A stretch of DNA of 64,000 bases from Chiloscyllium plagiosum. Lineage: Eukaryota. The DNA is taken from the NCBI RefSeq assembly GCF_004010195.1, contig NC_057718.1, positions 7,011,579 through 7,075,578 on the forward strand. Direction: 5' to 3'. Numbering within the stretch: position 1 is the stretch's first letter; every line of letters begins with the position of its first letter. Both the position numbers and the translations under genes were made by a program. The notes beneath the pieces were generated by a model, which saw only the letters and a program-made list of their open reading frames with translations, had not been told where the DNA came from and made no database searches. This document shows positions 1,906-63,589 of this stretch, piece by piece.

Positions 1906-3594
1906 CTAGAAATTAAGGGCTATGGGGCGAGTGCAGGGTAAGCAGAATTGAAAAACCCATCAGCCATGGATAAATGGTGGAGTGGACTTAATGGGCCAAA
2001 TGGCCTTGCTTCCACTCCTATGTCTTATGGTCTTACAGTCCTAGGCTGATCCTTGCCTATTCCTTTGTCTGTCCAACTCTCTCTCTGGGCTCTAACCCCA
2101 CCCATCGTTTACTCCTCCTCCCCACCCTCACCCCATAAATACCAACCATCTCCCTGAGCTACCATCAGTTCTGAGAAAGGACTACTAGACCCGAAATGTT
2201 AACTCTGCTTTTTCTCCGCAGATGCTGCCAGATACGTTGAGATTTTCCAGCGGTTTCTGTCTTTGTTCCTTAGACGTTGGTCTTGGCATCACGTTGGCCA
2301 GATGTCCCAGAATGCTTTAGAGTTTGCATTCTTTTTTTCAGGTCTTTATGGAACTGCAGGGCATCCCAATGTGTGTAGCCGCTTTTGGAGAGTGGTGACC
2401 ATTGTAGCAAATACAAGTGTCAGTTTGTGCACAGAAAACCCACACTAAAGATAACAACATGGTCATGACCCCATCATTACTTTTAGGTATTTGATATTTT
2501 GGGTTTCGAAGGCGCTGCCTGAGGATCTTTGGTGAATTTCTGCAGTGTGTCTTGTAGATAGTACACACTGCTGTTACTGAGTGTCAGTGGTGGGGGGAGT
2601 GGGCGTTTATGGATGTGGTGCCAATCAAGCTTAAAATTGAGGGGTGATAGATATAGGACAGATATAGTCAGAGAGTAGTAAGGGTGTGGAACGCACTGCC
2701 TGCAAAAGTAGTAGACTCGCCAATTTTAAGATCATTTAAATGGTCATTGGATAAACATATGGATGATAATGGAATAGTGTAGGTTAGATGCACGTTAGAT
2801 TGGTTTCACAGGTCGGCGTGACATTGAGTGCCAAAGGGCCAGTACTGTGCTTAAATGTTCTATGTTCTAAGGAGACCAAAACTAGACACAATATTCCAGG
2901 TGTGAAATTACCAAGGCTCTGTACAGTTGCAGCAAGACATCCCTGACCCTGTACAAAAAGACACAACATCCAGGAAACGATACAGTGGCCTAGATTCCAG
3001 ATCTGAAAGCATCTTTAGTCAGTCTAAGCCTCCTCCATCTGCCCAGACCCCGTGGCATATGGAACATCTTCCCACTCCAGGGGGCACTGGTTCTTGGGCC
3101 AGAATGAGCCACAATTAATTCCAACTCCACACAAGCGAGGAGCCCCAGGGAACTGTAATCATTTCAAGTGAATCGAGAAAGGAGCTGATCCCGCACTGTT
3201 CCCAGACGGTCTGGAATCCACATCTGTTTGGACTTAGGAAGGAGTGTAGATATGAGTACTCTCTGATCTCACTATGCCTCTGCAGTTCCACCTGGTACGA
3301 AGAGATTAAGTAAAGCGGCTGTATGTGGTCTTACTGTATAAATGTCTTCCCTTTATTCTGAGGCTTAGTGGGCGGCACGGTGGCACAGTGGTTAGCACTG
3401 CTGCCTCACAGCGCCTGAGACCCGGGTTCAATTCCCGCCTCAGGCGACTGACTGTATGAGTACTCTCTGATCTCACTCTGCCTCTGCAGTTCCACCTGGT
3501 ACGAAGAGATTAAGTAAAGCGGCTGTATGTGGTCTGACTGTATAAATGTTGGTGACGAAACAAAGATCAATGGATCCATCCAACCTACCCCAAC

Positions 3595-4033
3595 CCATAA
3601 GACCATAAGATATAGGGGCAGAAGTTAGGCCATTCAGCCCATCACGTCTGCTCTGTCACTCAATCATGGCTGATAAGTTTCTCAACCCCATTCTCCTGCT
3701 TTCTCCCTGTAACTCTTGATCCCCTTGACACTGAAGAACCTATCCATCTCAGACTTAAATATATTCAATGACCTGGCCTCCACAGCCTTCTGTGGCAATG
3801 AATTCCACAGATTCACCCCTCTCTGGACGAAGCTCCTCCTAACCTCCATTCCAAAGTGTCTTCCCTTTATTCTGAGGCTATGCCCTTGGGTTTTAGTCTC
3901 TCTTGCCAAATGGAAACATCTTCTCACCATCTATTCTGTCCAGGCCATTCAGCATTCTGTAAGTTTCAATTAAATCCCCCCCCCCCCCCCCTCGTCCTTC
4001 TAAACTCCATTGCGTATAGACCCAGAGTCCTCA
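3595..4033 (-). mobile_element. CR1 3' fragment
   Basis: QRGVNLWNSLP peptide; cataagac tail repeats. Confidence 0.85.
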
Positions 4034-5426
4034 TGATAACTCGGGCATTGTACCAGATCCTCACCCCTACACCTTCCAGTACATATTGCCCTCACCCCAC
4101 ACTACCTCCTTCAAGAGTAAAATGCTTCAGAAGCGACCAAAACACAACTTCCCCAAAAATCCTCTCCAGATCCCTCAGACAATTGAAACTTGTCCAGGAG
4201 ATGTCATGCGTGAAAGGTAATCTGGAAAGATGTTTACCTGCTGTAGGAAGGTGAATCTCCTGGAGTAATCCATATCCAAATGCAGCAAGGTCTGGACAAC
4301 ATCCGGACTTGGGGTGACCACTCCTGAAGATATTGTGGCAAACAGCTGCCAAGCAATGACTATCTCCAACAAGAGAGTCTAACCAACGGCCATTGATATT
4401 TGATGGCCAAACCATCACTGAATTCCCCCACCATCAACCTCCTAGGGATGACCATCGACCAGAAGCCAGTCATAGAGATATGACAACAATAACCCATCCC
4501 TAATTGCCCAGGGGGCAGTTAAGAGCCAACCACATTGCTGTGGGTCTGGAGTCACATGTAGGCCAGACCAGGTCAGGATGGCAGTTTCCTTCCCTAAAGG
4601 GGATTAGTGAACCAGGTGGGTTTTTTTCCTGGCAATTGAATCACGATCATCATTAAAGCTTTAATTCAGAATTTTCTTTAAAATTGAATTTAAATTCCAT
4701 CATCTGCCATGGCATGATTCAAATCCAGATCCCCAGAACATTACTTCAGTCTCTGAATTAACAAATCCACAAATAATACAACTAGACCATCAACTCCCCT
4801 CCTGCCTCCCCAAAGCCTGTCCAGCATAGTATCCACGTGGAATTTGGTGGCATGTTCTCCACCTATTCAAGGGGATTGACAAATTAGATGTAGACAGGAT
4901 CTGTCCTAATGTTGTGTGATCTAAAACGAGAGGACACAGTTTTAGGATAAGGGATATCAGATTTAAAACCAAGATGAGGAGGAATTTTGTTACCCCAGAA
5001 TGTAATGGACACTGACTAAATTTAAGAAGGTGATAGATTTTTAACGAGTAATGCGTTGAAGGGGCGGGAGAGTGGGCAAGAAAGTGGAGTTGAGGCCAAG
5101 GTGAGATCAGCATGATAGCACCAAAAGGCAGAGAAGGGGCTGAAAGGCCTACTCCTGTTCCCAGTTCTTATGTTCTCAGAGTTGCCTCCCAAGTAACTGC
5201 ACAAAGATAGGAGTTGTTCTGATCGCCGTGGAAACAGAGCTGAATAAAATGATAGCACAAATGGGTAATAACTCCATCCACCCTCCTCACATCGGGCCTA
5301 GAAAACAGCATTTCCCACAGCCTAGCTGATTGGAACAAGACTAACAATCAGGACGTTTGGGAATGGTGGAACCAAAGTTACAAAACAAGGATAAAGGCTT
5401 ATTTTGTCAGATAAGACTTTTAATTT

Positions 5427-6466
5427 TTCAAATGATTTGGATGCAAGCATAAGAGGTACAGTTAGCAAGTTTGCAGATGACACCAAAATTGGAGGTGTAG
5501 TGGATTGCGAAAAGGGTTAGCTCAGATTACAACAGGATCTGGATCAGATGGGCCAATGGGCTGAGAAGTGGCAGAATGGAGTTTAATTCAGATAAATGCG
5601 AGGTGCTGCATTTAGGAGCGTCCTGATGAAGGAGCGTCGCTCCGAAATCTAGTGTGCTTCCAATTAAACCTGTTGGACTATAACCTGGTGTTGTGTGATT
5701 TTTAACTTAGCAGGACTTATACACTTAATGGTAAGGTCCTAGGGAGTGTTGCTGAACAAAGAGACCTTGGAGTGCAGGTTCATAGCTCCTTGAAAGTGGA
5801 GTCGCAGGTAGATAGGATAGTGAAGACGGTGTTTGGTACGCTTTCCTTTATTGGTCAGAGCATTGAGAACAGGAGTTGGGAGGTCATGTTGCGGCTGCAC
5901 AGGACATTGGTTAGGCCACTGTTGGAATATTGCGTGCAATTCTGGTTTCCTTCCTATTGGAAAGATGTTGTGAAACTTGAAAGGGTTCAGAAAAGATTTA
6001 CAAGGATGTTGCCAGGGTTGGAGGATCTGAGCTACAGGAAGAGGCTGAACAGGCTGGGGGCTGTTTTCCCTGAAGCGTCGGAACCTTATAGAGGTTTACA
6101 AAATTATGAGGGGCATGGATAGGATAAATAGGCAAAGTCTTTTCCCTGGGTTCGGGGAGTCCACAACTAGAGGACATAGGTTTAGGGTGAGAGTGGAAAG
6201 ATATAATAGAGACCTAAGGGGCAACTTTTTCACGCAGAGGGTGGTATTTGTATGGAATGAGCTATCAGAGGAAGTGGTGGAGGCTGGTACAATTGCAACA
6301 TTTAAGAGGCATTTGGATGGGTATATGAATAGGAAGGGTTTAGAGGGGTATGGGCCGGGTGCTGGCAGGTGGGACTAGATTGGGTTGGGATATCTGGTCG
6401 GCATGGAAGGGTTGGACCGAAGGGTCTGTTTCCATGCTGTACATCTCTATGACTCTATGACTCTAA
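5427..6466 (+). mobile_element. CR1/HER1 LINE 3' fragment
   Basis: KFADDTK, LVRPLLEYCVQFW, RGNFFTQRVV; tail ctctatga repeats. Confidence 0.93.
5621..5708 (+). mobile_element. Single arm of the 30915-31361 family inserted in a CR1; hammerhead with mutated palindrome
   Basis: CTGATGA-A-GGAGC/GTC/GCTCC-GAAATCTA followed by a tail nearly identical to 31309-31362. Confidence 0.8.
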
Positions 6467-6532
6467 GTCTGTGATAGCAATTGCCAAATGTGGTTGAAAC
6501 AAAAGAATTCACGGTGGGGGAATGATGGCTCA

Positions 6533-13661: not shown

Positions 13662-14860
13662 CTGTATTTAAAGCAAAACATGACAATCAATCAATTCACC
13701 CAATCCTATTCCAAAAGACCTCTTTATACAAAACATTGAATGTCTTCAAGATAGAGTTCAATATAGTTCTTACGGCTAAAGGGATGAAGGGGTATGGGGA
13801 GAAAGCAGGGACAGGGGGACTGAGTTAGATGGTCAGCCATGATCATATTGAATGTTGGAGCAGGCTCAAGGGGCTGAATGGTCTACTTTATATATCTTTA
13901 TTTATTTCTAATTTAGCAAAGAATTCCCTCTGAGACACTCATACACCATCCAAATGGACTTTCATCTGCTCTTCCTTCATAGTCACTGATACTTCCAATA
14001 TAAGTAGGCAAAAAAAAAGACATTGAATAATTCCACAGAGGCTGGTATCTGGTCGCCAATCAGGCTTTATTTACTCATGGGGAATCCTTGACACTGATCC
14101 AGCTCCCTCAGAGCCAACTCACTCTAACACTCCCGTTTATTTTTTTCAGGATGTGTGACACTAATGCTCTTTTCTCTTTTTTTTTAATTCTCCCCCCACA
14201 CTACTGCCTGACAGCGGTGGTGCTTATTTTTCCCCAGCATCCATGTTGTGTGTGTGCAGGTGTCGGACACAGCAAAGAACAAGAAGTGCGTGAATCTTTA
14301 TTTATATTCCATCCCCAGGAAGAAAGGAAACACCCGAGTGGCCAGTGACAAGCAGTGCCCTTCTCAAAAGACAATGCTGCATGATCAAACAGTGAAGGGG
14401 AGGGCAGGGATTAAATCAAAATAGAGTTTGAGGGGACATTCTTGTTTTTTTCTCTTAATATGAGTTGGAAAAAACTCCAGAGGTCGGCATACCCTCACCA
14501 AGTCACCCTTTATTTACACATAGAGAGTCCTTGACCCTGATCCAGCTCCCTTAGAGCCAACTCTCAGAGTGAACAGAACCTCTGACACAACTGCTTTTTT
14601 TTTCTCCTTTTTTTTCTTCTTTTTGGATGTGGGCAGCTGGTCCACAGTCAGTTCCCTCCCCTCTGACACAATCAAGAGGAGAGTCCTTGCACATACTGAT
14701 CCAGCTCCCTCAGAGGCAGCTCTCAGCGTGAATAGAATTTCTGAACAGAACTCCTGTTCTTTTATTTTCGTTTTTTTCTCTTTTTGTTATATCCCCACAC
14801 TACCACCTAACTGTGGTAGTTTAGGGTGTAGGTTTGCTCGCTGAGCTGTAGGTTTGATAT

Positions 14861-14900
14861 CCAGACGTTTCATTACCTGGCTAGGTAACATCATCAGTAG
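14861..14900 (-). ncRNA. Minimal hammerhead ribozyme motif, sense to the CD109 last intron
   Basis: Reverse complement of the 15207-15240 core; stem I is CTA/TGG (one U-G pair). Confidence 0.75.
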
Positions 14901-15203
14901 CGACCTCCAAGTGAAGCGAAGCTGTTGTCTCCTGCTTTCTATTTATATGTTTGTCCTGGATGGGGTTCCTGGGGTTTGTGGTGATATCATTTCCTTTTCG
15001 TTTTCTGACACATGCCAGAGAATTCCTAGAGGCCTGGCACTCCAACCACAACGCCATAAACAAACACATAGATCTCGATGCCATCTATCAACCCCTCAGA
15101 AAACGAACAGGAAATGACATCACCACAAACCCCAGGAACCCCATCCAGGACAAACATATAAATAGAAAGCAGGAGACAACAGCTTCGCTTCACTTGGAGG
15201 TCG

Positions 15204-15243
15204 CCACTGATGATGTTACCTAGCCAGGTAATGAAACGTCTGG
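15204..15243 (+). ncRNA. Minimal type-I hammerhead ribozyme motif (Penelope-associated)
   Basis: CCA-CTGATGA-T-GTTACCT/AGCC/AGGTAAT-GAAAC-GTC-TGG: intact core, 7-bp stem II, 3-bp stem I, ACGT palindrome in place of stem III. Confidence 0.8.
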
Positions 15244-15811
15244 ATATCAAACCTACAGCTCAGCGAGCAAACCTACACCCTAAACCTCAACCTGAGCTAC
15301 AAACCTTCACAAATCTTGCAAATAACTGCAGTGGTGCTTATTTTTCCCCAGCATCCATGTTGTGTGTGTGCAGGTGTGAGACACAGTGAGAGACACAAGG
15401 TGTACGAATCTTTATTCAATTCCCACCACCAGGAAGAAAGGAAACCCCCGAGTGGCCAGTGACAAGCAGTGCCCTTCTCAAAGGGCAATGTTGTGTGATC
15501 AAACAGTGAAGGGGAGGGCATGGATTAAATCAAAATAGAGTTTGAGGGGACATTCTTGTTTATAATATTTTATTAAACAAATTACAACACAATTTACAAA
15601 AAACAGTTAACATTTACAGCTGTATACAACAGCAATTTTACAAGGGAGAGGAGCAGTAAAGCTAGGCCCCAAACCTTACTGTTCAACCAGTTTACAGGGA
15701 AATGAGGACATTCTTGTTTATATCTGTCAGCCAAGGCTCCCTTATTGGACCAGATTAACAGCCTCAATCAGGGAACTTGTATTCCATTCGGCTGACCTTG
15801 TTATGATCTTT

Positions 15812-16243: not shown

Positions 16244-16706
16244 TAGGATCGAGGCTGTAGGTTCTCTGCTATCTGCTGTATGTGTGAGAAACACCCCTCC
16301 TCACAATCCAGTGATATACAGAGAACAGGCAGCACCACCTTCTCCAGGGGCACTGGCAATGAATGTTGTCCCAGCCAAAAATGCCAACATCCTGAGAATG
16401 TGTATTTAAAATAGTAGGGTTGTGTCATTATTTTCTTTTGAGAGATTACGGTGGAGAGCCAACCCACTCTGACAGCAGGATATTGGATATGCCAAATTTG
16501 GATGGAACTAATTTTGAGACATGTCCCAGATCCTCCCTGCTGTGGTCAGTCAGGGTCTGGACAGTATAATTAGAGATACACATTGTCATCCTACAGAGAT
16601 CCTGATGCACTGACTCTGTGGGAACTGCGATGAACAATGCCAGGCCCCTGGGCAAATGACTCCAACTTGAAGTTAGAGTCAGAGACATCACATGACTGTG
16701 ATTTAA

Positions 16707-16790
16707 GAAGGGCTTATGCCCGAAACGTCGATTCTCCTGTTCCCTGGATGCTGCCTGACCTGCTGCGCTTTTCCAGCAACACATTTTCAG
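16707..16790 (+). mobile_element. 5'-truncated arm of the same palindromic family
   Basis: GGGC/TTAT/GCCC-GAAACGTC with CTGA lost; TSD CTGTGATTTAA at 16696-16706 and 16791-16801. Confidence 0.85.
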
Positions 16791-17120
16791 CTGTGATTTA
16801 ATCCTCCCTGGAGAGTTCCCCTGGAAATATTAAACCTGAATCTGCCTCCTGGGTAACTCAACAACTGGCTCTTTTGATGCTATCCTCCTCCCAAGCCCCG
16901 CTCAACACCCTCACCCTCGATTCTACCCCCTCATCCTGAACTGACCACTCCCCCACAACACAAGACCCCCTGACACTCCGAAATGCTCCATTACACCAGC
17001 CGACAACCCAGCTTGCCCCCACGCCCTGACCGACTCCAGAGAAATTAGACCAACGTTTCCATATTGGCGAGGGATACAGATCCACACCCAAACTTCAAAC
17101 CAAAAAATTCAGGGACTCAC

Positions 17121-23339: not shown

Positions 23340-24100
23340 CTAACCATTTGTGCCTTGATATTCAATGGCATTACCATCACTGAAGCCCCCTCTATCAACA
23401 TCCTGGGGGTGGCCATGGACCAGAAACTCAACTGGATTCATCACATAAACACAGTGGCTGCAGGAGCATGTCAGACAGCGGGAAGTTTGTGGACAGTAAC
23501 TCATCCCCTGGCTCCCCAAAGCCTGTCCACCATCTACAGGAGTGTGATGGAATACTCCCCACTTGCCTGGATGGGGGCAGCTCCAACAACACTCAGAACG
23601 CTCGACACCATCCAGGACAAAGCTGCCCAGTTGATTGGCACCATATCCACAAGCATTCAGTCCCTCCACCATCGACACTCAGTAGCAGCAGTGTGTACTA
23701 TCTACAAGATGCACCGCAGAAGTTCGCCAAAGATCCTTAGATAGCACTTTCCAAACTCTGAAGAAGGATAATTGGACCTGAAACATTAACCTTGCTTTCT
23801 TCACACACATGCTGCCAGACCTGTTGAGTTTCTCCAACAATTTCTGTTTTTATTTTCCTTCCGAACCCATCATAACTTCCATCTAGAAGGACAAGGGCAG
23901 CAGACATGTGGGAACATTACCACTTGCAAGTTCCCTTCCACTGACCATCCTGACTTGGAAATATATCGCTGCTCTTTCTCTGTTGCTGGGTCAAAAACCT
24001 GGAACTCCCTCCCTAACAGCACTGTCCTCAGTTTGAGGACAATTAGTCAAGGACAATATCTGCTGTTTGTGCTAGTACCACCCACATAACATGAAAGAAG
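23340..24100 (+). mobile_element. CR1-group LINE 3' fragment
   Basis: ILGVAMDQKLNWIHHIN...RSVMEYSPLAW: C-terminal part of a LINE ORF2. Confidence 0.8.
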
Positions 24101-27600: not shown

Positions 27601-27979
27601 CTGTAATTTTTTTGAAAATTCATTCATAAGATGCGGATATCACTGGCCAGGCCAATATTTATTGCCCATCCCTAATTACTCAGCGGGCACGTGAGAAGCG
27701 AATTGCTGTTTGTCTGGAGTCACATGTAGGTCAGACCACGTAAGGATGGCAGATTTCCTTCCCTTAGGAGCATTAGTGAACAAGATGGGTTTTTCCAACA
27801 ATTGGCAACAGGTTCATAGTCATCATTAGATTCTTAATCACAGATTTTAATTGAATTCAAATTCCACCATCTGCCATGGCAGGATTCAAGCCTAGGTCCT
27901 CAGAACATTACTAGTACCTTTGGATTAATAGTCCAGTGATAATACCACTAGGCCACCATCTTCCCTTAATTAGTACAAT

Positions 27980-30914: not shown

Positions 30915-31361
30915 GATTTGGAGATGCCGGTGTGGGACTGGGGTGTACAAAGTTAAAAATCACACAACACCAGGTTATAGTCCAACAGGTTTAATTGGAA
31001 GCACACTAGCTTTCGGAGTGTCGTTCCTTCATCAGGATATGTGGATATGTCAACATTTGTCTAGCTAACACCAATTGTTACAGTTAACCTGAGAATGCAA
31101 CTTTTGAAAAAAAAGGTTTTGTGATTTACACATGAAAGAAGTGAAACTATCATGGTATTCGAACAGATGAAAGATTCAACAGACAATCAAGGTATTTTTC
31201 AATGTATAATTTCAGTTACATCACACTGTAAATTTTTGCGATAAATTCTGTGCCTTACAATTGTGCCCTCCACAACCACCTGATGAAGGAGCGGCGCTCC
31301 GAAAGCTAGTGCTTCCAATTAAACCTGTTGGACTGTAACCTGGTGTTGTGTGATTTTTAAC
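30915..31361 (+). mobile_element. Penelope-derived element (second family) with ~85-bp inverted ends and hammerheads
   Basis: Arms ~30951-31036 and 31279-31362; TSD TAGAGAAAAC at 30905-30914 and 31362-31371. Confidence 0.8.
31277..31311 (+). ncRNA. Minimal hammerhead ribozyme motif (CUA cleavage triplet)
   Basis: CAC-CTGATGA-A-GGAGC/GGC/GCTCC-GAAAG-CTA-GTG; AGCT palindrome. Confidence 0.75.
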
Positions 31362-33964: not shown

Positions 33965-34778
33965 CTGAAACCAAGAGAACATCATAGAACCTGAGAAACA
34001 ACCTGCGATGAGATGAGACTCTCAGAGAAAGGTGAATCGTGGGAGGGGAGGTTGGCTGCCGCATTCCCTTCATTCATGCGCATTCCAACAAACAGAGTTC
34101 TGAATCTGAAACTGGGAAGTGGGACCAACCCGCAAGCAACGCGGGCAAGATCGAGAAACATATCCCACAGGAGTGTGGCTCTCTCACCGAACCCCCTCTA
34201 CCCCCGTGCAGCTCCAGCTGGACAGAGAGCCGAGAGAAGTTGGGGTTATTCACCTCTGAGCAAGATGGAGTCAAGCAGAAATTGAGAAGTGGGATTCAAC
34301 GCAACGAGAGGCTCTGTTGAGTAAATGAGAAAGTGTAACCTCGGCCAATAGAGGAGACGGTTTTAAGATGATCAGAGGGGTTTTGGGATAGAGAAAGGGG
34401 TGGGTGGAGCGGATGGATGACTCGTTCAAAGAACCAGCGCAGGCAGGATGGGCTGAATGGCCTGCTGTTGAGTAACATAATTCTACAATTTCACTGCATA
34501 CATCAAAACAAAAGCAAACACAAGGAATGTGAATCAGGAAGAAAAGCAGAAATTGCTGTAAAAACTCAGTAGGTCTGACAGAATCTGTAGAGAGAAAGTG
34601 GAGTCCATGCCTGGGGTCCACTGACCCTTCCTCAGAACAGGGGCAATGGACCCAAACATTAGCTCTGCTTTCTCTCCACAGATCTACTGAGTTTTTACAG
34701 CAATTTCTGCCTTTGTTCCAGCATCTGCAATTCTCCGATTTCTTTCTGGTTGGATGTGAATCAGTGGATAGATTTTAC

Positions 34779-37401: not shown

Positions 37402-38749
37402 CTGGAAGAAACAGCATTTAAATCATTATCAAGTATATTCAAGGTGGAGACAGTCAGATGTTTTAATGAGGGAAACGATCAAGGGTTATGGGAAAAAGGC
37501 AGGAAAGTGGAGTTGAGGAATATCAGATCAGCCATGATCTCATTGAATGGCAGATCAGTCTTGAGGGGCTGAATGGCCTACTTCAGCTCCTATGTTTCCT
37601 GGCAAGCGAGGGTTAGAAATGGGCATTTGTGTTAAAATATTGAGGGAGTCTAAGAGGGTTTGTCCAATAATTAGCGTGTCTCCAAACTCAGAAATGTCAA
37701 ACTGGATCACAGTGATGATAATCAACTAGCGATGGGCACTATTTTCTCTTATCTCTGTTGTCCATCGTTTTCTGGGGCTGGCCACTAACATTTCCATCAG
37801 GCGATGGGGTTTCACACATAAGGTCAAAGTGTCTGTTCTTGTCAATATTACGTACAGGGAGACAGCTGCACTTTATATGTACCCCCACCTTGACCAGTTC
37901 CACGCGATGGCTTCTCTGAGAATCTTCGACAGGATGCATTCCAGCCTCTCAATCAGGTCTTTCGTTTCAGCTGCACCTCACGCAGTATAACCCCCTGTGA
38001 CAAAGCAGGGTGGAAGCAGCAGTAACACTGAATCCTCATGCACTGCCTTGACTTGTACTGCTGCCTCCTTACCCGATGGCTCCTTACCTTCGATAGTGGG
38101 AATACTTCAACACATCCACTGCAGTGGATCGAGAATGTTGCTCACCACTGCAAAGTCAGACACAGTCAGCGGAAGACTATAACGGCTGATCTTAGCAGTA
38201 AACCCCATTTATTTGTTTCAACAAACTTGTTTTCTTTTGTTTAAAGAACATTATTGAGCACTGTAAGTAATGCTTTCCTTTCCTTTTAATCCTCCTTTGT
38301 ATAACAACACTATATTGTTTTTACACTGTAAGATTTGTACCTGGGTATTTGTACCTAAGATGGCGCCATTAAAAGGCAGCCATTGTACAAACCTTTCACT
38401 GCACATCTGTATTGGAGTACAAGTGACAATAAAGGATATTCAATTCAATATTCTGCGAATACTTGATTTGATTTGATTTATCATTGTCACATACACCAAG
38501 GTGTGGATGTGCAGGTGTTGGACTGGGGTAGACAAAGTCAGAAGTCACAGGACACCAGGTTATAGTCCAACAGACTTCACCTGACAAAGGAGCAGCCCTC
38601 CAAAATCTTGTGATTTCAAATAAGCCTGTAGGACTGGGGTAGACAAAGTCAGCTTGGTGTTGTGTGATTTCTGGAAAAGCACAGCCGGTCAGGCAGCATC
38701 CAAGGAGAAGGAGAATCAACATTTCGGATGAAGTCCTGATTAGCTTAGC

Positions 38750-39052
38750 TTACATTACAGTGTGGAAACAGGCCCTTCAGCCCAACAAGTCCACACCGAC
38801 CCGCCGAAGCGCAACCTACCCATACCCCTATATTTACCCCTTACCTAACACTACGGGCAATTTAACATGGCCAATTCACCTGACCTGCACATCTTTGGAC
38901 TGTGGGAGGAAATCGGAGCACCCGGAGGAAACCCACGCAGACACGGGGAGAATGTGCAAACTCCACACAGTCAGTCGCCTGAGGCGGGAATTGAACCCGG
39001 GTCTCTGGCGCTGTGAGGCAGCAGTGCTAACCACTGTGCCACCGTGCCACCC
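38750..39052 (-). mobile_element. HE1-type V-SINE, well preserved
   Basis: tRNA-derived head (A box TGGCACAGTGG, B box GGTTCAATTCC), V-domain, tail matching the CR1/HER1 3' end. Confidence 0.9.
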
Positions 39053-40936
39053 ACGATGAGGGGCTCTTGCCCGAAAAATCAACTCTCCTGCTCCTCAGAT
39101 GCTGCCTGACTGGCTGTGCTTTCCCGGCACCACACCCTCAACTCTGATCTCCAGCATCTGCAGCCCTCACTTTCTACTAGTCATGTGGCTTCTGACACGA
39201 ACCTAGGAACAGTGAAAAGTTTTGTTTTGTGTACAGTACAGGCAGATTATACCAGAGGGTAATAGAACAGAGTGAAGAATACAAGGTTACAGCTGCAGGG
39301 AAGGTGCGCAAAGATCGAGATCAACATTAAATTTTAAATTTGAGAGGCCCACGCAAGAGTATGATAACAGCAGGAAAGAAGCTGTTCTTGAATGTGTTGG
39401 TCCTTGTAGTCAAACTTTTATGTCTTCTGCCCAATGGAAGAGGGTGGAAAGGAGTTTAACTGGGTTGGGAGGGGTCTTTGATGATGTTGGTTGCTTTCGC
39501 AAGGCAGCGGGAGGTACAGATGGAGTCAATGGATGGAAGGCTGGTTTGCGTGATGGACTGGGTTATGTTCATAGTACTCTGTCAGTTTCTTGTGGCCTTA
39601 AACACTTTTCTTCAAAAAAAACAAACAAAAAAATCCACTAGAATTAAATTTTCTTGGTGGAGCTGGGAAAGAGAATGTAGAAGGCTGAGATAGACAGATT
39701 TTAATCAGGAAGGGAATCAAGGGACATAGGGGAAAAGGCAGGAAAGTGAACGTGAGGATCAGCCAGGATCTTATTGAATGGTCCGATGGACCAAATGGCC
39801 TATTTCTGCTCCTACATCATACACTCGTATGATCTTTTAGCAATGGAGGGAATAGGGTAAGGAGGGAAATCTGCAACAATAGGTGGTCTGGGTCTGGGGT
39901 GCTGAAGGAGAGGAGATGAAGGCTGTGCTCCAAAGCACTCTACCTGACAATGCGTATCCAATGATAAATAGTCATATGAAAGGACAGAGCCCACGTTTTG
40001 CTCAGAAGAGAAACCTGAAGGCCAAACTTTTGACCTTGGGATCTCACAGAATCCCTCATGTGCAGATAGAGGCCATTCGGTCCACTGAAGTCTGCATTGA
40101 CCTTCCAAAGAGCATCCCACCCTATCGCTATAGCCCTACATTTACCATAGTTAACCCACCTAACCTGCATACTATGAGCAACTTAGCATGGCCAATCTTG
40201 CATGTTTGGACTGTGAGAGGAGACCAGACCATCCAGAGGAAACCCACGCTGACGTGGGGAGAGTGTGCAGACTCCACACAGACAGTCACCCGAGGGTGGG
40301 ATCGAACCTGGGTCCCTGGCGCTGTGAGGCAGCAGTACTCACCACTGTGTGCCTGCACCCACCGTACAGGACAAATACAGGAATATCAAATGCTTTATAA
40401 TCACAACAATGTATATTACAGGAGAATAGATGCTTTTTTTTTGGCAAGTTGATTCTGATAGGCTGAGGCGATGCCGTGGAGAAAGCAATGGGGAGCTGCT
40501 GGTTCTCCAAGCTGCTGGGAAACTCATTAAAAAACAGCAAGACTTCAACATCCTCTATCTGCTTATAGAGAAAGGGTCGTGAAGAACCTATTGTTTCTCA
40601 CGAGCAGAATGAGCCACACCGTGAGCTCAACTGATTATCTTAAATTGGTTGGTATTGACACACTCAGACTTGTTCAGTAAGCGCTGTCCAATTCGCATCT
40701 AATTGAAGAGATTTTGTTTTACACGGACTCTCTGTGTACTGTCTACACACTGATTCTGGTTCCTTTATCAGGCTGTAAACATATATATATATATATAGTC
40801 CTGAGGCACCAGACACTCTCACTGCATGCGACAATGTAAACAATGGATATTCCACAGTATACGTGAGGTCAGCTTTTAAACATGCCTCCCTGTTTATGGA
40901 ATAATAATTTATTGAGGAAAACGTACAAAGACATAC

Positions 40937-41165
40937 CATGGAACTCTGATCTTCCAGAAGGGCTGCCAGTATGTAGGCAGTCAGAGATACGGATCCGCTC
41001 TGTCCACCCTGTAACTCTGTGTGGATAACTCGTCCAGGCTCCTGGAATTCACCATCCTTATTCAGGTGTGTGAGTATCCAGGAAATGGTCTCTTCCAGAA
41101 CCATCTTGTCAATGTAAATGAAATCCTGGGCCTGCAGGAAGCACTTTACCACGAAAGCTGACAAC
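40937..41165 (-). CDS. CD109: CD109 exon, 229 nt: LSAFVVKCF...EPGRVIHTELQGG...LTAYILAALLEDQSSM
   Basis: Thioester-domain motifs; catalytic His codon at 41021-41023; donor gtatgt; acceptor is GAG after a pyrimidine tract; phase 2 to 0. Confidence 0.95.
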
Positions 41166-41514
41166 CTCCATGAAGAGAAAGAGAAAATATTAAATCCATA
41201 ATTCTGACCATATCATATGAACGTGCTGCAGAGTTCTACACGGACATACCCAGAGCTGCAAGAATTATACGACAAAACAAGATAAAACAGCGGGCAAATT
41301 CTAAAGACCTGGGAATGTATGTGCACTGATCATTGTAGGTGGCAGACAAGAGCAGAAATTGCCGGAAAAGCTCAGCAGGTTCAGTAGACAGTCACAAGGG
41401 GAGGCAGTGGCGGAGTGGAAATAACGTGCAAGTAAAATCTCCAACGTCAAACTAATCACTGATGTCGTCAGGTTTGAATCTCACCACGGCACATCATCAA
41501 ATTTGAATTTTGCG

Positions 41515-42752
41515 TAGATTATTTTCTAAATGGGGAAAGGCTTCAGAAATCTGAAGCATAAAGGGACTTAAGAGTCCTGATTCAGGATTCTCTTAAGGTT
41601 AACAGGCAGGTTCTGTGGCAGTTAGGAAATGCAAATGCAATGATAGTGTTCATTTCAAGAGGGCTAGAATTCAAGAGCAGGAGGCTGTGGAAGGCTCTGG
41701 TCAGATCCCTATTGGAACATTGTGAGCAGCTTTGGGCCCCGTTTCCAAGGAAGGATGTGTTGGCATTGGAGGCAGTCCAGAGGGGGTTTACAAGGATGAT
41801 CCCAGGGATGGAGGGCTTTTCATATGAGGAGTGGTTGGGGTGCCTGGGTCTGTACTCATTGGAATTTAGAAGGATGAGGATGGGTCTGGCTGAAACTTAC
41901 AGAACACCGAGAGGCCCGGATAGAGTGGACATGGAGAAGATGTTTCCACTAGGAGGAGAGACTAGGACCCAAGGGTACAGCCTCAGAGTGAAGGGATGAC
42001 CATTTAGAACTGAGATGAGGAGGAATTTCTTCAGCCAGAGGGTGGTGACTCTGTGGAACTCACTGCTACAGAGGACTGTGGAGGCCAAGTCATTAAATGT
42101 CTTTAAGACAGTGATAGATAGGTTCTTGATGGGTAAGGGGATCAAGGGGAGAAGGCAGGAGAATGTGGTTGAGGAAGATGTTTCCACTAGTAGGAGAGAC
42201 TAGACCCAAGGGCACAGCCTTAGAGAGAAGGGAGGACCCCATAAAACTGAGATGAAGAGGAATTTCTTTAGCCAGAGAGTGGGGAATCTGTGGAGCAGTT
42301 TACCACAGAAGGCTTTGGAGGCTAAGACATTAAGTGTATTTAACACAGAGATAGCTAGGGTCCTATTTAAAACCGAAAGGACTGCGGATGCTGTATAAAT
42401 CACAAACAAAAACAGAAGTTGCTGGAAAAGCTCAGCAGGTCTGGCAGCATCTGTGAAGAGAAATCAGAGTGAACATTTCATGTCGTTGATCCTCCCTCAG
42501 AACCCTCTGTTCCTCAGTCCTGAGGCAGGGTCAGCAGACATTAACCCTGATTTCCCTTCACAGATGCTGCCAGACATGCTGAGCTTTTCTAGCAACTTCT
42601 ATGGATAGGTTCTTGATTGGTAAGGAGATCCAAAGGTTACAGAGAGAAGGCAGGATGTAGGGGTTGAGAAAAATATCAGCCATGACTGAATCCAGAGGAG
42701 ATTCAATGGGCCAAATGGCCCTATTCTGCTCCAATCCCTTATGGTCTTATGG
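41515..42752 (+). mobile_element. CR1 3' fragment with internal duplication and nested palindromic element
   Basis: LVRSLLEHCEQLW and RRNFFSQRVV peptides; 41936 onward is repeated from 42175. Confidence 0.85.
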
Positions 42753-43728: not shown

Positions 43729-43917
43729 GGAGCAAGTGAGGACTGCAGATGCTGGAGATCAGAGTCAAATAGTGTGGTGCTGGAAAAGCACAGCAGGTCA
43801 GGCAGCATCCGAGGAGCAGGAGAGTCAGTGTTTCAAGCATTAGCTCTTCATCACAAATGTGATTCCTGATGAAGAGCTTATGCTCCAAAATGTTGATTCT
43901 CCTGCTCCTCAGATGCT
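43729..43917. mobile_element. Older palindromic Penelope-derived copy; relatives near 2165-2265, 23757-23855, 34525-34745, 38505-38740 with 39054-39177, 42377-42600, 48047-48262, 62863-63052
   Basis: Shared gatgctgcc(t/a)gacctgctg...ttttccagca arms and decayed CTGANGA-stem-GAAA cores. Confidence 0.75.
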
Positions 43918-47398: not shown

Positions 47399-48280
47399 GA
47401 AATCGTACATCTGGCTTTCTAATTCAGGCTGGTCTAAAGCTGTTCCTGTTCCTTGTGCCCCCTTATGTTAGTGCTGTCATTTCTGGAAATAGATATAGAC
47501 AGAACAGGCATAACAAAGTGTTGGAGGAATTTGCAACGTCTGACTAACTTTCCTTTGTCACATATTGTCACAATAATAGAGGTCGGGCAGGCACCAAAAT
47601 AAGAAACCTGCCCACCATTTGTAAATGAATAATTAAGAAATATTGAGCTCATTAACAGTTCCATCCACCCTGCCCTCACCAAACCCCAGCTGGCCAGGGG
47701 CAGTTGCATGGGAATGGACATATTACCTTTGTAAGGAAGTTTTCAAACTGAGGAAAGAAAGGGGTATGACTGTCTTCTGGGTGTGCACTTTGTAATAACA
47801 CTACTCCCCAACAGATGGTGATACCCCACCCTTCATACCAACTTGCTGGCTCTGAAAAACCTGCTCCCCAAAAACCCATCCCCACCCACCCCACGCCCCT
47901 GAGCCTTCAAAACCCTCCCTGAACCCATATTTCAGATTTTCCTGAATCTGTGATCTACCCTGTCTTCCTTTTGGGACTGCCATGTGTCTGAACTCTTCCA
48001 TTCACCCCTTCTCCCCTCCCCTCTCCCTGTGATTGTACAAAACCCAGAGAAAGTGCGTACTGCAGACGCTGGAGATCAGAGTTGAAAAGTGTGGCACTGG
48101 AAAAGCACAGCTGGTCAGGCAGCATCCGAGGAGCAGGAGAATTGATGTTTGGAGTATAAGCTCTTCATCAGAAATGAGGAATGGCTTAGGGTCGAAACGT
48201 CCATTCTTCTCCTCCACGGATGCTGCCTGACCAGCTGTGCTATTGCAGCGCCACACTTTTTGACAAAGTACAAAACCCAC

Positions 48281-50127: not shown

Positions 50128-50341
50128 GCTGAAAATGTGTTGCTGGAACAGCGCAGCAGGTCAGGCAGCATCCAGGGAACAGGAGAATCAACGTTTCAGG
50201 CATAAGCCCTTCTTCAGGAATGAGGAAGGGCTTATGCCCGAAACGCGATTCTCCTGTTCCCTGGATGCTGCCTGACCTGCTGCGCTGTTCCAGCAACACA
50301 TTTTCAGCTCTGATCTCCAGCATCTGCAGACCTCACTTTCT
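50128..50341. mobile_element. Short palindromic Penelope-derived element (third family) inserted in an HE1 SINE
   Basis: Near-perfect palindrome 50128-50308; TSD CCTCTGACTAATGC at 50116-50129 and 50342-50355; minus-strand core CTGAAGA-A-GGGC/TTAT/GCCT-GAAACGTT at 50190-50217. Confidence 0.85.
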
Positions 50342-51558: not shown

Positions 51559-51560
51559 TT

Positions 51561-53069: not shown

Positions 53070-55290
53070 GCGAGTTGTGAGAATATTTGTAGCTCAGGTT
53101 GAAGTTCTGAATGTAGGTTTGCTCGTTGCGGTGGAAGGTTCATTTTCAGATGTTTTGTCACCATACTAGGTAACATCTTCAGTGAGTCTCCAAATGAAGC
53201 ACTGGTGATGTAACCCACCTTCTATTTATATGTTTGAGTTTCCTTGGGCTGGTAATGTCATTTCCTGTGGTGACATCATTTTCTATGGTGATGTCATTTC
53301 CCATGGTGACATCATGTCCTATGATTATGTCACCTCCTGTTCTTTTTCTCAAGAGTTGGTCAATGGGATCCAAGTCAATGTGTTTGTTGATAGAGTTCCA
53401 GTTGGAATGCCATGCTTCTAGGAATTCTCGTGCATATCTCTGTTTGGCTTATCCTACGATGGATGTGTTGTCCCAGTCGAAGTGGTGTCCTTCATCATCC
53501 ATATCTAAGAATACTAGTGAGAGAGGGTCATATTGTTTTATGGCTAGTTGATGTTCATGTATCCTGGTGGCTAGTTTTCTGCCTGTCTATCCAGTGGCTA
53601 ACAAGTGACGATAGACTGGACCTCACAGCTAGAGAACTGAATCACAGCCTACTCAAAAACCCCAGACATCTGGAGAAATAATTAAGACTGACTTCCAAAA
53701 AATGAAACCAGACAGATCCAACATATCACGCTTCTACAAATTACCCAAAATTCACAAACCAGGAGACCCCATCCCCCACCCCGCCTTCAGACCCATAGTC
53801 TGACTACATGGAAACCAACTTACAGATTAGCCAAGGAGCTACACCAAAGACTAAAACACTTAGTCGAAGACTCACGCCACTACATCCACTCCACCCAAGA
53901 ATTCCTGAAGACGATCAAAGACACCAAGATAGAAGAGGATGAAATAATGATCTCCTTTGATGTAACAGCCTTGTTCACATCCATCAACATCAACCAGGCC
54001 AAGCAAACACTGACTACATTATTGGAGAACCAAGGACACATACACCACAACACCACCAACTTCATCAACAAAGACAGTATTGTCAAGCTAGTGGACCTAT
54101 GCCTTACCACCCACTTCACCATCAACAACAAAACCTACAGACAAACCAACAGAACACCCATGGGATCTCTGATCTCCGATATCAGGGTTCTTAGCAGAGG
54201 CAGTAATGCAGAGACTTGAACAAACAGCTCTGCCAACCATCCAACCCAAGCTTTGGGTCTGCTATATGGATGACTGAATGAAACAAATTAGAGGAAACCT
54301 TCAAGACCATCAATAATACCCTTACTGGCATAAAGTTCACTAAAGAGGAGGGAAACAACAAACAGCCATCCCTAGATGTCGCAGTAGAACAAACAGCCAA
54401 TGGGGAACTTCAAACCAGCGTCTACAGGAAAACAACACATATGGACTACAGAAGCAATCATCTCAACATCCACAAATGAAGCTGCATTAGGACATTATTC
54501 CAATGAGCCACCACACACTGCAGCACAGAGGAACTATGCAGAGCAGAGGAAAATCGTCTATTTGTGTATTCAAAAAGAATGGGTACCCAATGAACTCAGT
54601 CCACTGATTTCTGAGCAACAAACTCAAACAAACAAACAAGACATGTCCAGAAACCCTCGCCACTCTCCCCTACATCAAAGACATCTCAGGAATGACTGCC
54701 AGACTACTTAGACCCCTCAGCATCATGGTAGCCCACAAACCCACCAACACACTAAAACAGCAGCTAATGAACTTGAATGACCCTACACAGACAAGCAAAA
54801 CTAATGTTATCTACAAAATACCATGCAAGAACTTTAACAAACACTATATTGGACAAACAGGCAGAAAACTAGCCACCAGGGTACATGAACATCAACTAGC
54901 CACAAAATGACATGATCCATTCTCACTAGTATCCTTACATACAGATGAGGAAAGACACCACTTCAACTGGGACAACACAACTGGGCAAGCCAAACAAAGA
55001 CACAGAGAATTCCTAGAAGCATGGCATTCCAACTGGAACACTATCAACAAACATATTGACTTGGATCCCATTTACCACCCCTTGAGAAAATGAACAGGAG
55101 ATGACATCACCATAGGAAATGATGTCACCATAGGAAATGACATCACCAGCACAAGGAAACTCAAACATATAAATAGACGGCAGGCTACACAACCAGAACT
55201 TCATCTGGAGGCTCACAGAAGATGTTACCTAGTATGGTGACAAAATGTTGGAAAATGAACCTTCCATCTCAGCAAGCAAACCTACATCCA
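53070..55290 (+). mobile_element. Penelope-like retroelement relic (RT + GIY-YIG endonuclease) with inverted terminal segment
   Basis: Fragmented ORFs: ISFDVTALFTSI (RT), TPMGS, YMDD near 54263, YKIPC...YIGQTGR (GIY-YIG). 53070-53594 is an inverted copy of ~54850-55290. 13-bp TSD GCAAG(T/G)ATTATTA at 53057-53069 and 55291-55303. Confidence 0.92.
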
Positions 55291-61391: not shown

Positions 61392-61771
61392 ATAGAAAAA
61401 TGATTTCCTCTGATGGGTGAATGAAGAACAAGGAAAATGATCATAAAGTAAGCAACAAAATGGAAAAGCATTTCTCACACAAGAGAGAGTGGCAAGCTGT
61501 AAATCTGTCCCCCAAAGAACTATGAATGTTTGGAGTCAAATGGCGCCTTCAGGCCTTCAGAGATTAATATATTTTTGTTGGTTAGAGGGGTCAAGAGAAG
61601 ACAGGTAAATGGACTCAAGATACCAATTAGGACTGATTGAGCTGATAAATCAAGTAGGCTTAAGTAATTGGATGCTCAAATCTGTTTCTCATATTGTGAC
61701 TGTCTTGTCTCACTAAGTGGAGATTCAGAGAAGATCTTGATTAGGCAGAAGAAGTAACCAGGCTGACTTAC

Positions 61772-61913
61772 CAATCACAGTGACATGGGCAATTTCACTG
61801 CCAACCACCACATTTTCTGGGAAGGTGAACTGTATATCCTTGGACCAAAGCTGTCCCTCATCCTCTGGGGCAATGAACAGAGCCTGAGAGAAGGACTGCT
61901 GTATTCCTTCAGC
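61772..61913 (-). CDS. CD109: CD109 exon, 142 nt: AEGIQQSFSQ...FTFPENVVVGSEIAHVTVI(G)
   Basis: Acceptor gtccag, donor gtaagt; phase 0 to 1; A2M-family segment preceding the thioester domain. Not in the ORF track. Confidence 0.92.
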
Positions 61914-63589
61914 CTGGACACAGAAGGGGAAACAAGTTGTTAAACACTGTCAGGTAAAAATCATAGCCTGAAAATCTGGAATAATAAAGAAAAGCAAGAC
62001 AACTAATCAGGAGTCAAATTGTAATAAATAAATCAGGAGTTCTGATGTTTATGGAGCTACAAATTTTATCAAAGCTAGGAATCCTGCAGCGAGTGTAACT
62101 CACCTCCCCAAAACTTGCCCACAAACTACAAGTCAGGAGTATGATGGATTTACTCCCCATTGGCCTGGATGGGTGCAGTATCGACAACATTCAAGAAGTT
62201 TGATGCCTTCCAGGACAGACCGGCCCTCTAGATTGACACCACATCCATAAACATTCATTCCCTGTGGTGGAGGCTGGTACATTTACAGTATTTAAAAAGC
62301 ATCTGGATGGGTATATGAATAGGAAGGATTTAGAGGGATATTGGCCATATGCTGGCAAATGGGACTAGGTTAATTTAAGATATCTGGACAGCACAGGGGA
62401 ATTGGACCGAAGGGTCTGTTTCTGTGCTGTATAAATCTGTGACTCTATGCTCAAATCTGTTTTCAAATTCCTATTTGACAGTTTGAATCCACCTTAATCA
62501 CACTTTCAATTAACACAAACCAGATCACAACAAGTTACTGTGTAAAATTATTAATGTCAGACCATTTCTGGCTCTTTCACCAACCAGCCTTAAATCTGTG
62601 CTCCTTCGATTAGCAACCCACCGGAAACAAAAATTATTCTATCAAAGATACTCATGACTTTGAACACAGAAGTTAAATCTCAATCAGATCGAGGTTGGCT
62701 AAGGTACACTGCATTGTTTTCATGCTCTGGTACATTCTTTTAGATATCATTCTGGCAAGAAAGATAAATTCTAGCAAGAGGTAACTGTGATTAAACCAGG
62801 GATGTTAAGGATTGCATCACTATGTGAGAAAAAATATTTAATATGGTCAATAAAAACCCAAAGAACTGAGGATGCTGTAAATCAGAAACAAAAACAGAAA
62901 TTGCTGGAAAAACTTAACAGGTCTGGCAGTATCTGTGGAAAGAAATCAGAGTCAACATTTCAAGTCCGGTGACCCTTCCTCAGAACTGGGGATCCTTCTT
63001 CAGAAACAGTGGACCCAAAATGTTAATTCTGATTTATCTTCACAGATGCTGTCATATAGTATGCTCAAGATTAGTGGTAAGCCAGAGGAATGAAAACATT
63101 TTAAAAAGCAACAAAAGACAAATAAAAAATGAACAATGCTGAGTGAGAAAATAAACTTTGAAGTTAAACATGCAAGTAATATCAAGATGGACAGCAAGAT
63201 CTTCTTTAAATATATAAAAAGGAAGAGATACATCAGGATGACACAGTGGCTCTGTGCTTAACACTGCAGCCTCACAGCACCAGGGCCCTAGTTTTGATTT
63301 CAGATTTGTGTGACTGTCTGTGGGGAGTTTGCACATTCTCCCCGTGTCTGCGTGGGTTTCCTCTGCGTACTTTGGTTTCTTCCAAAAATCCCAAGTTGTG
63401 CAAATTAGGTGGATTGACCATGGGAAGTGGCCTACAGTGGCCAGGGATATGCAGGCTGGGTAGATTAGTCATGCGAAATGTAGGAATAGGGTAGGAGTAT
63501 GGGTCTGGGTGGGATGCTCTTTGGAGGGTTGGTGCGAGCTCGATGGGCTGAATGGCCTGCTTCCACACTGGAAGGTTTCTGTAATGAAA

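Follow-up and report, generated by a model that had tools for sequence, protein, structure and literature searches.

Hammerhead motifs at the 3′ ends of at least four families of Penelope-like elements in a shark genome

We examined a stretch of 64,000 nucleotides from the genome of the shark Chiloscyllium plagiosum (contig NC_057718.1, positions 7,011,579 to 7,075,578 of assembly GCF_004010195.1), called the window throughout, and the short repeats along it that carry a hammerhead ribozyme-like core. We hold it highly probable that at least four families of Penelope-like elements (PLEs) have left their 3′ ends at these loci of an elasmobranch genome, each family with a minimal type-I hammerhead motif that would work as proposed below. 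Taken by itself, their identification as PLE minimal hammerhead modules is nearly certain. Self-cleavage in vivo by the young masters of the families, for which we argue by analogy, has slightly less than an even chance of being real, and most copies, including 13 of the 17 in the window, are dead and decaying. The class is not new, as an earlier note on this DNA had acknowledged: minimal hammerheads are established in the pseudo-long terminal repeats (pseudo-LTRs) of metazoan PLEs (Cervera and De la Peña 2014, PMC4209133), and PLE minimal hammerheads also figure in Lünse, Weinberg and Breaker (RNA Biol), as given in excerpts of PMC6765202.

Anatomy of the motif

The four families, which we call A, B, C and D, have a common layout with unrelated helix I and helix II sequences whose pairing is kept. 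From 5′ to 3′ the motif consists of a helix I of 2–4 bp, the CUGANGA box, one unpaired base, a helix II hairpin of 4–7 bp and GAA. The helix III hairpin is replaced by a self-complementary A-CG-U or A-GC-U, followed by the base H at which cleavage is predicted. The motif sits in the 3′ untranslated region (the pseudo-LTR), 43–64 nt before the element's short 3′ terminus. The commonest forms of the families and their variants are as follows.

Family A: helix I CAC/GUG; CUGAUGA-A-GGAGC(GNC)GCUCC-GAA-AGCU-A
Family B1: helix I CCA/UGG; CUGAUGA-U-GUUACCU(AGCC)AGGUAAU-GAA-ACGU-C
B2, an older relative of B: helix I UCA/UGA, helix II GUUACC/GGUGAC; in the window from 53182 (-) and 55216 (+)
B3, a variant: helix II GUCACCU/AGGGGAC; among the genome matches listed
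Family C1: helix I UC/GA, then U-U, then A-U; CUGAAGA-A-GGGC(UUAU)GCCC-GAA-ACGU-C
Family C loop variants: UUUU, CUGU and UCAU; among the genome matches listed
C2, a subfamily: compensated helix II GAGC/GCUC instead of GGGC/GCCC; in the window from 43866 (+), 43854 (-) and 48171 (-)
Family D: helix I AGUU/AACU; CUGARGA-A-GGGUC(ACUG)GACCC-GAA-ACGU-U

A single unpaired base follows A9 in all 89 distinct rows of a parse that presupposed one bulge; this base is A in families A, C and D, and U in 16 of the 17 family B rows. The G10.1-C11.1 pair is present in 18/20 rows of family A, 39/47 of family C and 2/5 of family D, the other three family D rows having G-U through CpG decay. Family B has G-U rather than G-C at this pair in 15 of 17 rows and in its commonest genome-wide form; B2 and B3 carry G-C, unlike B1. 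The third helix I pair of family C is U-U in 29 of 47 rows. At the position of stem III the earlier note had read ACGT or AGCT, both self-complementary, and this was borne out: the tetramer is self-complementary in 67 of the 89 parsed rows, most of the remainder being the CpG-decay forms ACAU and AUGU with a few other single changes, and in 98% of motifs genome-wide.

Copies in the window

The loose pattern CTGANGA-N5-30-GAAA gave 16 matches in the window, compared with 6.7 ± 2.6 in 100 shuffles of it. A strict descriptor (CTGANGA box, one bulged base, helix II of at least 4 bp, GAAA, self-complementary dinucleotide, U, then H) found four copies, at 15207 (+), 14897 (-), 31280 (+) and 50217 (-), against a mean of 0.02 and a maximum of 1 in 200 dinucleotide shuffles; on the reversed window it found none. 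When every window position was scored with a covariance model made from 38 natural copies, four of them from this window, there were 17 matches at E≤1, of which 14 had E<0.01. Thirteen of the 17 have degenerated through CpG decay, mutated stems or a truncation that falls within the CUGANGA box. BLAST with family references added about ten further decayed copies, mainly of family D. The "roughly 15 loci" of the earlier note are therefore right as a count of family members; its statement that these loci share one motif holds for family membership, while all required elements are intact in only four. The stem II pairings it had listed were all located in the sequence at the positions named, with one reservation: GGGTC/GACTT at 62958-62983 (-) is present and pairs only by way of two G-U wobbles. 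The window copies are the following.

15199..15250 (+): family B, intact; helix I CCA/UGG; CUGAUGA-U-GUUACCU(AGCC)AGGUAAU-GAAACGU-C17; 41.6 bits, E 9e-9. The motif itself, 15207-15240 (+), is CTGATGA-T-GTTACCT/AGGTAAT-GAAACGTC with C17 at 15240; the element around it extends from the last 31 endonuclease codons (15011-15103) to a 3′ end at ~15285-15300
14854..14905 (-): family B, inverted head-to-head partner of the preceding copy, intact; motif 14864-14897 (-)
31272..31317 (+): family A, intact; helix I CAC/GUG; CUGAUGA-A-GGAGC(GGC)GCUCC-GAAAGCU-A17; element ~31053-31365. The motif itself, 31280-31308 (+), is CTGATGA-A-GGAGC/GCTCC-GAAAGCTA with A17 at 31308
30998..31043 (-): family A, inverted partner, motif at 31035 (-); core kept, helix II decayed to GGAAC/ACUCC; element 30951-31036
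5615..5660 (+): family A, motif at 5623 (+); truncated just upstream of CUGAUGA; AGCU changed to AUCU; element 5622-5707
50180..50225 (-): family C, motif at 50217 (-), passes the strict descriptor; CUGAAGA-A-GGGC(UUAU)GCCU-GAAACGU-U; 49 bits
50216..50256 (+): family C, head-to-head partner, motif at 50228 (+); box AUGAGGA; ACGU minus one base
16697..16739 (+): family C, GGGC/GCCC at 16710 (+); 5′-truncated within the CUGANGA box but intact in helix II, GAAACGUC and the portion 3′ of it; element 16707-16797
43817..43904: C2 head-to-head pair with CpG-decayed cores, minus copy 43817-43862 and plus copy 43858-43904; forms a hairpin
48134..48179 (-): second C2 copy, GAGC/ACUC; weaker inverted partner from 48174 (+)
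53139..53190 (-): older B2 motif; CUGAAGA-U-GUUACC../..GGUGAC; GAAA changed to AAAA
53064-53595 (-): PLE fragment with the B2 motif at its 3′ end; endonuclease coding remnants 53332-53595
53633..55290 (+): 5′-truncated PLE copy; remnants from reverse transcriptase (RT) to GIY-YIG at 53633-55090, with frameshifts; 3′ untranslated region; decayed B2 hammerhead at ~55216
62944..62991 (-): family D; helix I AGUU/GACU; CUGAGGA-A-GGGUC(ACCG)GACUU-GAAAUGU-U, CpG decayed; weak inverted partner from 62995 (+)
2163..2210 (+): family D, decayed; CUGAGAA; GGACU/GACCC; AUGU; E 0.0017
23750..23797 (+): family D, decayed; model match E 0.026
34560..34710: family D, decayed head-to-head pair; motif starts 34635 (-) and 34632 (+); BLAST only
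42420..42600: family D, decayed head-to-head pair; motif starts 42500 (-) and 42513-42520 (+); BLAST only
38573..38618 (+): old family-A-like copy; CUGACAA-A-GGAGC/CCUCC-AAAAUCU; E 0.014
39049..39090 (+): old family-C-like copy, weak match; E 0.061

The window is typical of the genome, not special, in motif density: in a single search, the model hit 13 times in its 64 kb and 11 times in 50 kb sampled arbitrarily from the same genome as five 10 kb pieces, about 200–220 hits per Mb.

The Rfam hammerhead models gave no match on the whole window, at the gathering score or at E≤10, and none at E≤10 on a 91-nt slice around 15207. Presumably the absence of helix III together with the very short helix I is the reason, and the expectation that annotation would be blind to these motifs proved correct in the window and the slice alike. 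Weak Rfam matches resembling miRNA precursors (E 0.18–4.5) at 43810-43911 and 50190-50247 were rejected as merely hairpins formed by head-to-head PLE ends. Such pairs would yield double-stranded RNA wherever they are transcribed.

Covariation of the helices

The model-made alignment held 137 hits in 98 distinct rows. It is fitted to the structure and its rows are related by descent; standard pairs filled 75.1% of its cells, compared with 57.3% in shuffles, the covariation score was 0.494 against 0.218, and none of 500 shuffles reached the observed values. Cells changed on both sides numbered 146, versus 54 in shuffles, and all eight modelled pairs showed two-sided changes. As a control, sliding the partner by 1–3 columns reduced pairing to 24–49%. 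In the MAFFT alignment underlying the model (A1), family A stands one column out of register, so these pair counts are a lower bound; another MAFFT alignment (A2) was dropped because it split the 3′ strand of helix II. A family-aware parse, which presupposes the structure that it counts, paired 408 of 432 cells in helix II and 214 of 267 in the first three pairs of helix I. The commonest forms of helix II were GGAGC/GCUCC, GUUACCU/AGGUAAU, GUUACC/GGUGAC, GGGC/GCCC, GAGC/GCUC and GGGUC/GACCC, and helix I took the forms CAC/GUG, CCA/UGG, UCA/UGA, UC/GA and AGUU/AACU.

Within family C, A stands at 10.2 in 4,422 copies, and 58 of 100 such copies among the matches listed compensate with U at 11.2, a base that is absent from this position in all listed rows with a UUAU loop and G at 10.2, as counted by eye. 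This pattern is one amplified compensated lineage, not 58 independent events. By eye, the family C stems in 100 matches listed contained six wobble-preserving changes outside the CpG site, about ten at the CpG site and five disruptive ones. Variation within families looks like neutral decay, as expected of dead copies, and speaks neither for nor against selection on them. With the difference in score and the compensated GAGC/GCUC subfamily, the proposal of at least four families with covarying helices was upheld.

Abundance in the genome

A genome-wide descriptor search of the kind that the earlier note had suggested as a check was run over the 3.56 Gb assembly, with reversed patterns as controls and with family-specific words alongside.

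Family A 32-mer, 2 mismatches: 37,794 matches; reversed 0
Family C 31-mer, 1 mismatch: 87,877 matches; reversed 0
Family B 37-mer, 3 mismatches: 5,998 matches; reversed 0
Family D 29-mer, free at two CpG sites, 3 mismatches: 32,223 matches; reversed 0
Descriptor CTGANGA-N-G-N6-20-Y-GAAA-CG-T-H, 0 mismatches: 158,206 matches; reversed 165
Descriptor CTGANGA-N-G-N6-20-Y-GAAA-GC-T-H, 0 mismatches: 46,245 matches; reversed 26
Descriptor CTGANGA-N-G-N6-20-Y-GAAA with any G/C dinucleotide, then T-H, 0 mismatches: 208,495 matches; reversed 796

Motifs with an intact core and ACGU or AGCU thus number 204,451, against 191 for the reversed patterns, so that the genome holds at least 204,451 intact cores, or about 57 per Mb, and the motifs have indeed spread through this shark as abundant repeats. 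Recognisable copies may amount to roughly 0.7 million, a crude extrapolation from 114 kb. Positions 15.2–16.2 are self-complementary in 204,451 of the 208,495 motifs with a G/C dinucleotide (98%) and carry the non-self-complementary CC or GG in 4,044 (1.9%); no abundant family without the palindrome was found among these 208,495.

These counts bear on the idea that the likeness to a hammerhead is a chance feature of the tails of ordinary long or short interspersed nuclear elements (LINEs or SINEs), an idea which we give practically no credence. It could draw on the silence of Rfam and on the roughly seven chance matches per window that the loose pattern produces. Chance does not account for the excess over reversed patterns, for 98% self-complementarity at the helix III site, for four families with unrelated yet paired helices, or for the physical linkage to GIY-YIG and RT frames described below, and we regard it as refuted by the reversed-pattern, self-complementarity, covariation and linkage controls.

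Reading frames and insertion signatures

At the family B locus L060, a same-strand reading frame stops 101 nt before the motif. This frame contains a GIY-YIG-type motif (IIYKFPCKDCHKHYVGQTGR...) and has the C-terminal end ...IYQPLRK; its endonuclease matched Pfam GIY-YIG at E 0.0049, below the curated cut-off. Its relatives are carpet shark and fluke proteins of 44–89% identity, many with an RT domain. Two of them, P0008 and P0012 (705–712 aa), both have RVT_1 (P0012 just under the Pfam cut-off) and GIY-YIG below the cut-off. Endonuclease coding sequence was found upstream of the motif in 26 of 30 family B loci. In the window, the final 31 residues of the family B endonuclease frame are encoded at 15011-15103, just before the motif at 15207, and 53633-55090 (+) gives a frameshifted alignment to residues ~208–702 of P0008/P0012, with a decayed motif downstream. 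In the older B2 copies, the interval that separates the endonuclease stop from the hammerhead contains tandem repeats of an 18-nt unit, AGGAAATGACATCACCAT and its complement (53250-53332 and 55096-55148); the young B1 copy lacks them at 15104-15206.

In the first eight family A loci upstream homology ends at ~335 nt and is non-coding and AT-rich. Two other copies reach further: L075 has an endonuclease frame (VVYLIRC...WYIGETEQRL...) ~850 nt upstream of the motif, and the longer L076 extends into RT-like sequence. In family C, L037 and L035 have a frame end (LEEERLIFxLGTLQPxGxN) ~220 nt upstream of the motif, which overlapping peptides join to a Pfam-positive GIY-YIG in L009, scoring above the cut-off. 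L009 was the one match in a genome search with Pfam GIY-YIG that scored 150 of 14,403 candidates and is not a census.

The copies also carry signatures of PLE insertion, for which excerpts of PMC8557442 name 5′ truncation, an inverted 5′-truncated copy and a 30–40 bp tail. Their upstream boundaries are ragged, as in 5′ truncation; most copies are shorter than 150 bp, and many begin with the CUGANGA box or close to it. In the window, head-to-head pairs lie at 14819-15008/15096-15285, 30951-31036/31279-31362, 50128-50216/50218-50314, 43817-43862/43858-43904 and 53064-53595/53633-55290, with several more in family D; the arms of the first, a family B inverted pair, are 98.4% identical. Among 100 genome matches listed for family A, 11 minus-then-plus pairs within 1.2 kb compare with one plus-then-minus pair. 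The 3′ ends have two alternative termini 33–38 nt apart, the PLE "tail"; copies with it, without it and unclassed number 12, 12 and 6 of 30 in family B, 14, 11 and 5 of 30 in family C, and 1, 4 and 3 of 8 in family A. According to excerpts of PMC11167929, such a tail arises because RT can start at two neighbouring internal sites. Among the family B matches listed, two pairs of motifs on the same strand are separated by 3,751 and 3,903 bp, and these spacings fit full-length copies between pseudo-LTRs. Taken together, the same-strand RT/GIY-YIG frames upstream (in families B and A, with a frame end in C) and these signatures demonstrate the Penelope origin that had been claimed for the motifs.

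In family B a TATAAATA box precedes the motif by 50 nt at 25 of 30 loci (L040–L069), and in family A a TATAAAT box stands at -36 to -40 at three of seven loci (L001, L003, L004); family C has practically no such box (1 of 30). Either box could possibly be a candidate pseudo-LTR promoter starting transcripts ~20 nt before the ribozyme; excerpts of PMC6765202 report promoters in PLE terminal repeats.

We consider it quite improbable that the repeats form a separate short non-autonomous class, SINE-like or retrozyme-like and mobilised in trans. The small size of most copies and their frequent start at or near the CUGANGA box would suit such a class, as would the halt of family A homology ~335 nt upstream in non-coding, AT-rich sequence, and a 2026 preprint derives animal retrozymes from PLE pseudo-LTRs (excerpts of 10.64898/2026.07.22.740005). 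However, the upstream boundaries are ragged, endonuclease coding sequence persists at 26 of 30 family B loci, the longer family A copies L075 and L076 reach endonuclease and RT frames, and no tandem arrays of motif units occur in the window. The short non-autonomous repeats of the earlier note are thus for the most part 5′-truncated 3′ ends of autonomous PLEs instead. A tRNA search of the window found nothing, and hence no hint of a SINE head derived from a tRNA.

At L001 (1579-1711) and L028, 3′ ends of different PLE families meet tail to tail or sit inside one another; in one case a family A end meets the tail of a family C element in inverted orientation. These arrangements fit reports of PLEs inserting into or beside earlier copies. 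Near-identical 31-letter words from the family B 3′ end (15011-15300) occur in twenty Logan-contig runs under four organism codes, and family B is therefore shared, nearly unchanged, by several labelled species. No RNA run was listed for this stretch.

Proposed working of the motif and alternative roles

By analogy with known PLEs, element RNA would be transcribed, motif included, from a promoter in the upstream pseudo-LTR or from tandem copies. Two motifs could then pair through the 4-nt palindrome (ACGU or AGCU) to form a shared helix III, and each strand would be cut after base 17 (C, A or U), probably at a low rate and assisted by the element's protein, trimming the 5′ side of the transcript. 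RT would start cDNA at one or the other of two internal sites lying 3′ of the motif, leaving copies with or without the tail. Nearly every insertion, however short, carries the motif because reverse transcription would start 43–100 nt beyond it and usually abort early; a start just beyond the motif with early abortion would therefore explain the abundance of the motif without any role in the host.

Several observations weigh against this account, most of them against its catalytic part. Helix I is merely 2–4 bp long, with the U-U third pair already noted in family C. The youngest family, B1, has G-U at 10.1-11.1 and still reached ~6,000 near-identical copies; full catalytic fitness may therefore not be needed for spread. 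In the commonest pairs the two motifs lie on opposite strands, so that a single transcript cannot supply both partners of a sense-sense dimer. In ViennaRNA cofolding an intermolecular helix III was obtained for the C copy only, whereas the A and B copies favoured a strand swap of helix II. The Rfam hammerhead models stayed silent even at E≤10 on the 91-nt slice. Poly(A)-selected single-cell RNA run X22 has reads over B and C copies in both directions that cross the predicted cleavage sites, and it contains no pile-up of molecule ends anywhere, a poly(A) single-cell library being ill-suited to cleavage; a further single-cell RNA run, X23, gave no reads. Published PLE hammerheads cleave poorly in vitro (PMC4209133), and excerpts of PMC11167929 report for an anole element that catalytic mutants had no effect on insertion in vitro and that no RNA-seq reads ended at the site. 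As to the frames, an RT/GIY-YIG frame is linked upstream of the motif in families A and B and partly in C, where the link appears partial and rests on a short C-terminal peptide; family D has no open reading frame (ORF) linked to it.

Part of this evidence would also fit a hammerhead fold kept mainly as a structured 3′ module by which RT recognises the RNA and positions itself, with self-cleavage incidental or dispensable, an alternative that we judge unlikely. It gains from the fixed short distance (43–64 nt) at which the motif lies upstream of the RT start sites in all four families, from the spread of B1 with a G-U wobble at 10.1-11.1, from the lack of read ends at cleavage sites in the poly(A) single-cell run X22, and from the anole PLE, in which, according to excerpts of PMC11167929, hammerhead cleavage required protein and catalytic mutants inserted normally in vitro. 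Against it, CUGANGA, GAAA, U-H and the self-complementary tetramer are invariant across families with unrelated helices, which would be superfluous in a mere protein-binding hairpin, and PLEs of fungi and plants have fully active hammerheads (PMC4209133). A stronger form of the idea, which we find improbable, is that in this shark lineage the module is no longer selected for cutting RNA and persists as a folded 3′ handle for the start of RT 43–64 nt downstream. If true, it would explain the thousands of near-identical copies despite a weakened G-U core pair and the lack of cleaved ends in RNA, as well as a dense motif load in which many head-to-head pairs form long hairpins in host transcripts.

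Comparison with known hammerheads

The reading of these loci as ends of hammerhead-bearing PLEs agrees closely with the minimal hammerheads of metazoan PLEs (PMC4209133). Shared with them are the type I order, the catalytic boxes, the unpaired base A9/10.1, the short helix I, the palindromic 15.1–16.1 tetramer without a helix III hairpin and, in most families, the G10.1-C11.1 pair. As there, several covarying consensus families occur in one genome, copies are mostly solitary and tied to truncated PLEs, and some opposite-strand pairs lie 100–700 bp apart. The host here is an elasmobranch, whereas PMC4209133 names bony fishes, coelacanth, Xenopus and reptiles; the usual length of helix II is 4–5 bp, compared with 7–8 bp in Schistosoma; and the young family B1 has G-U at 10.1-11.1, unlike the G-C of metazoan PLE hammerheads. 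The motifs thus have the defining features of the metazoan PLE class except the G-C pair in B1, self-cleavage being proposed for them by analogy. The same paper gives ~4,000 motifs for coelacanth and ~9,000 for Xenopus, against at least 204,451 intact cores here, and excerpts of PMC7229834 give 126,247 canonical type I motifs for the much larger axolotl genome; the descriptors differ, and both comparisons are rough.

Like PAc, a Poseidon PLE of Anolis carolinensis known to us from excerpts of PMC11167929, the shark elements have an RT and GIY-YIG ORF and a hammerhead in the pseudo-LTR. Two RT start sites in PAc lead to an optional tail of 30–40 bp; here it is 33–38 nt and present in about half of the classifiable copies. 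The PAc ORF, as those excerpts have it, starts within the hammerhead, whereas here, in the 3′ parts of the elements that the comparison covered, the motif was seen downstream of the stop, 101 nt past it in B, ~850 nt in A and ~220 nt in C. The general architecture of PLEs, with 5′ truncation, an inverted abutting copy and a 30–40 bp tail, is matched as well (Craig et al. 2021, PMC8557442, in excerpts), and canonical PLE clades have the hammerhead within the pseudo-LTR as here, with no substantive difference.

Non-LTR retrozymes and the satellite hammerheads of amphibians (excerpts of PMC7229834 and 10.64898/2026.07.22.740005) are likewise type I with a weak helix III; they act as dimers, as the motifs here would, and an evolutionary link between retrozymes and PLE pseudo-LTRs has been proposed (excerpts of 10.64898/2026.07.22.740005). 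According to the excerpts of both sources, retrozymes are tandem units of 150–450 bp with canonical loop-loop contacts and a real, if short, helix III; unlike them, the motifs here have neither a loop 1 nor a helix III hairpin. None of the motif copies in the window is overlapped by a tandem array, which rules out retrozyme arrays for these copies. With Rfam Hammerhead_1 and its relatives the catalytic core is identical, and none of these models gave a match.

Our literature searches found no paper that treats PLE hammerheads in sharks in substance; in excerpts of a 2026 preprint, retrozymes are surveyed in one chondrichthyan. These are new families in an elasmobranch at an unusually high density, notable for that density and not for mechanism. 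Their value is descriptive, in that at least four hammerhead-bearing PLE families are documented in a cartilaginous fish and Rfam-based annotation proves blind to all these motifs, while knowledge of the ribozyme is unchanged. B1 with its G-U pair and the compensated GAGC/GCUC subfamily offer natural material for asking whether PLE transposition needs cleavage.

Other features of the window

Two direct copies of another interspersed repeat, 15325-15561 and 14211-14447 (237 bp, 89% identical), flank the family B inverted pair. Read depth over this repeat stretch in RNA run X22 is one-directional and amounts to 180–400, far above its surroundings. At 40664-41212 (-) an open frame encodes an alpha-macroglobulin/complement TED domain (Pfam PF07678, E 1.7e-20), and the window probably lies inside an A2M or complement-type gene with the repeats in its introns. 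The stretch 27974-28855 (+) is a fragment of an AP-endonuclease-type LINE (Exo_endo_phos, E ~1e-10), a class of retroelement other than PLEs. Finally, a minisatellite at 70-752 has nested periods of 16, 33 and 107 nt in GTGTCAGTGTACAGGT-type units.

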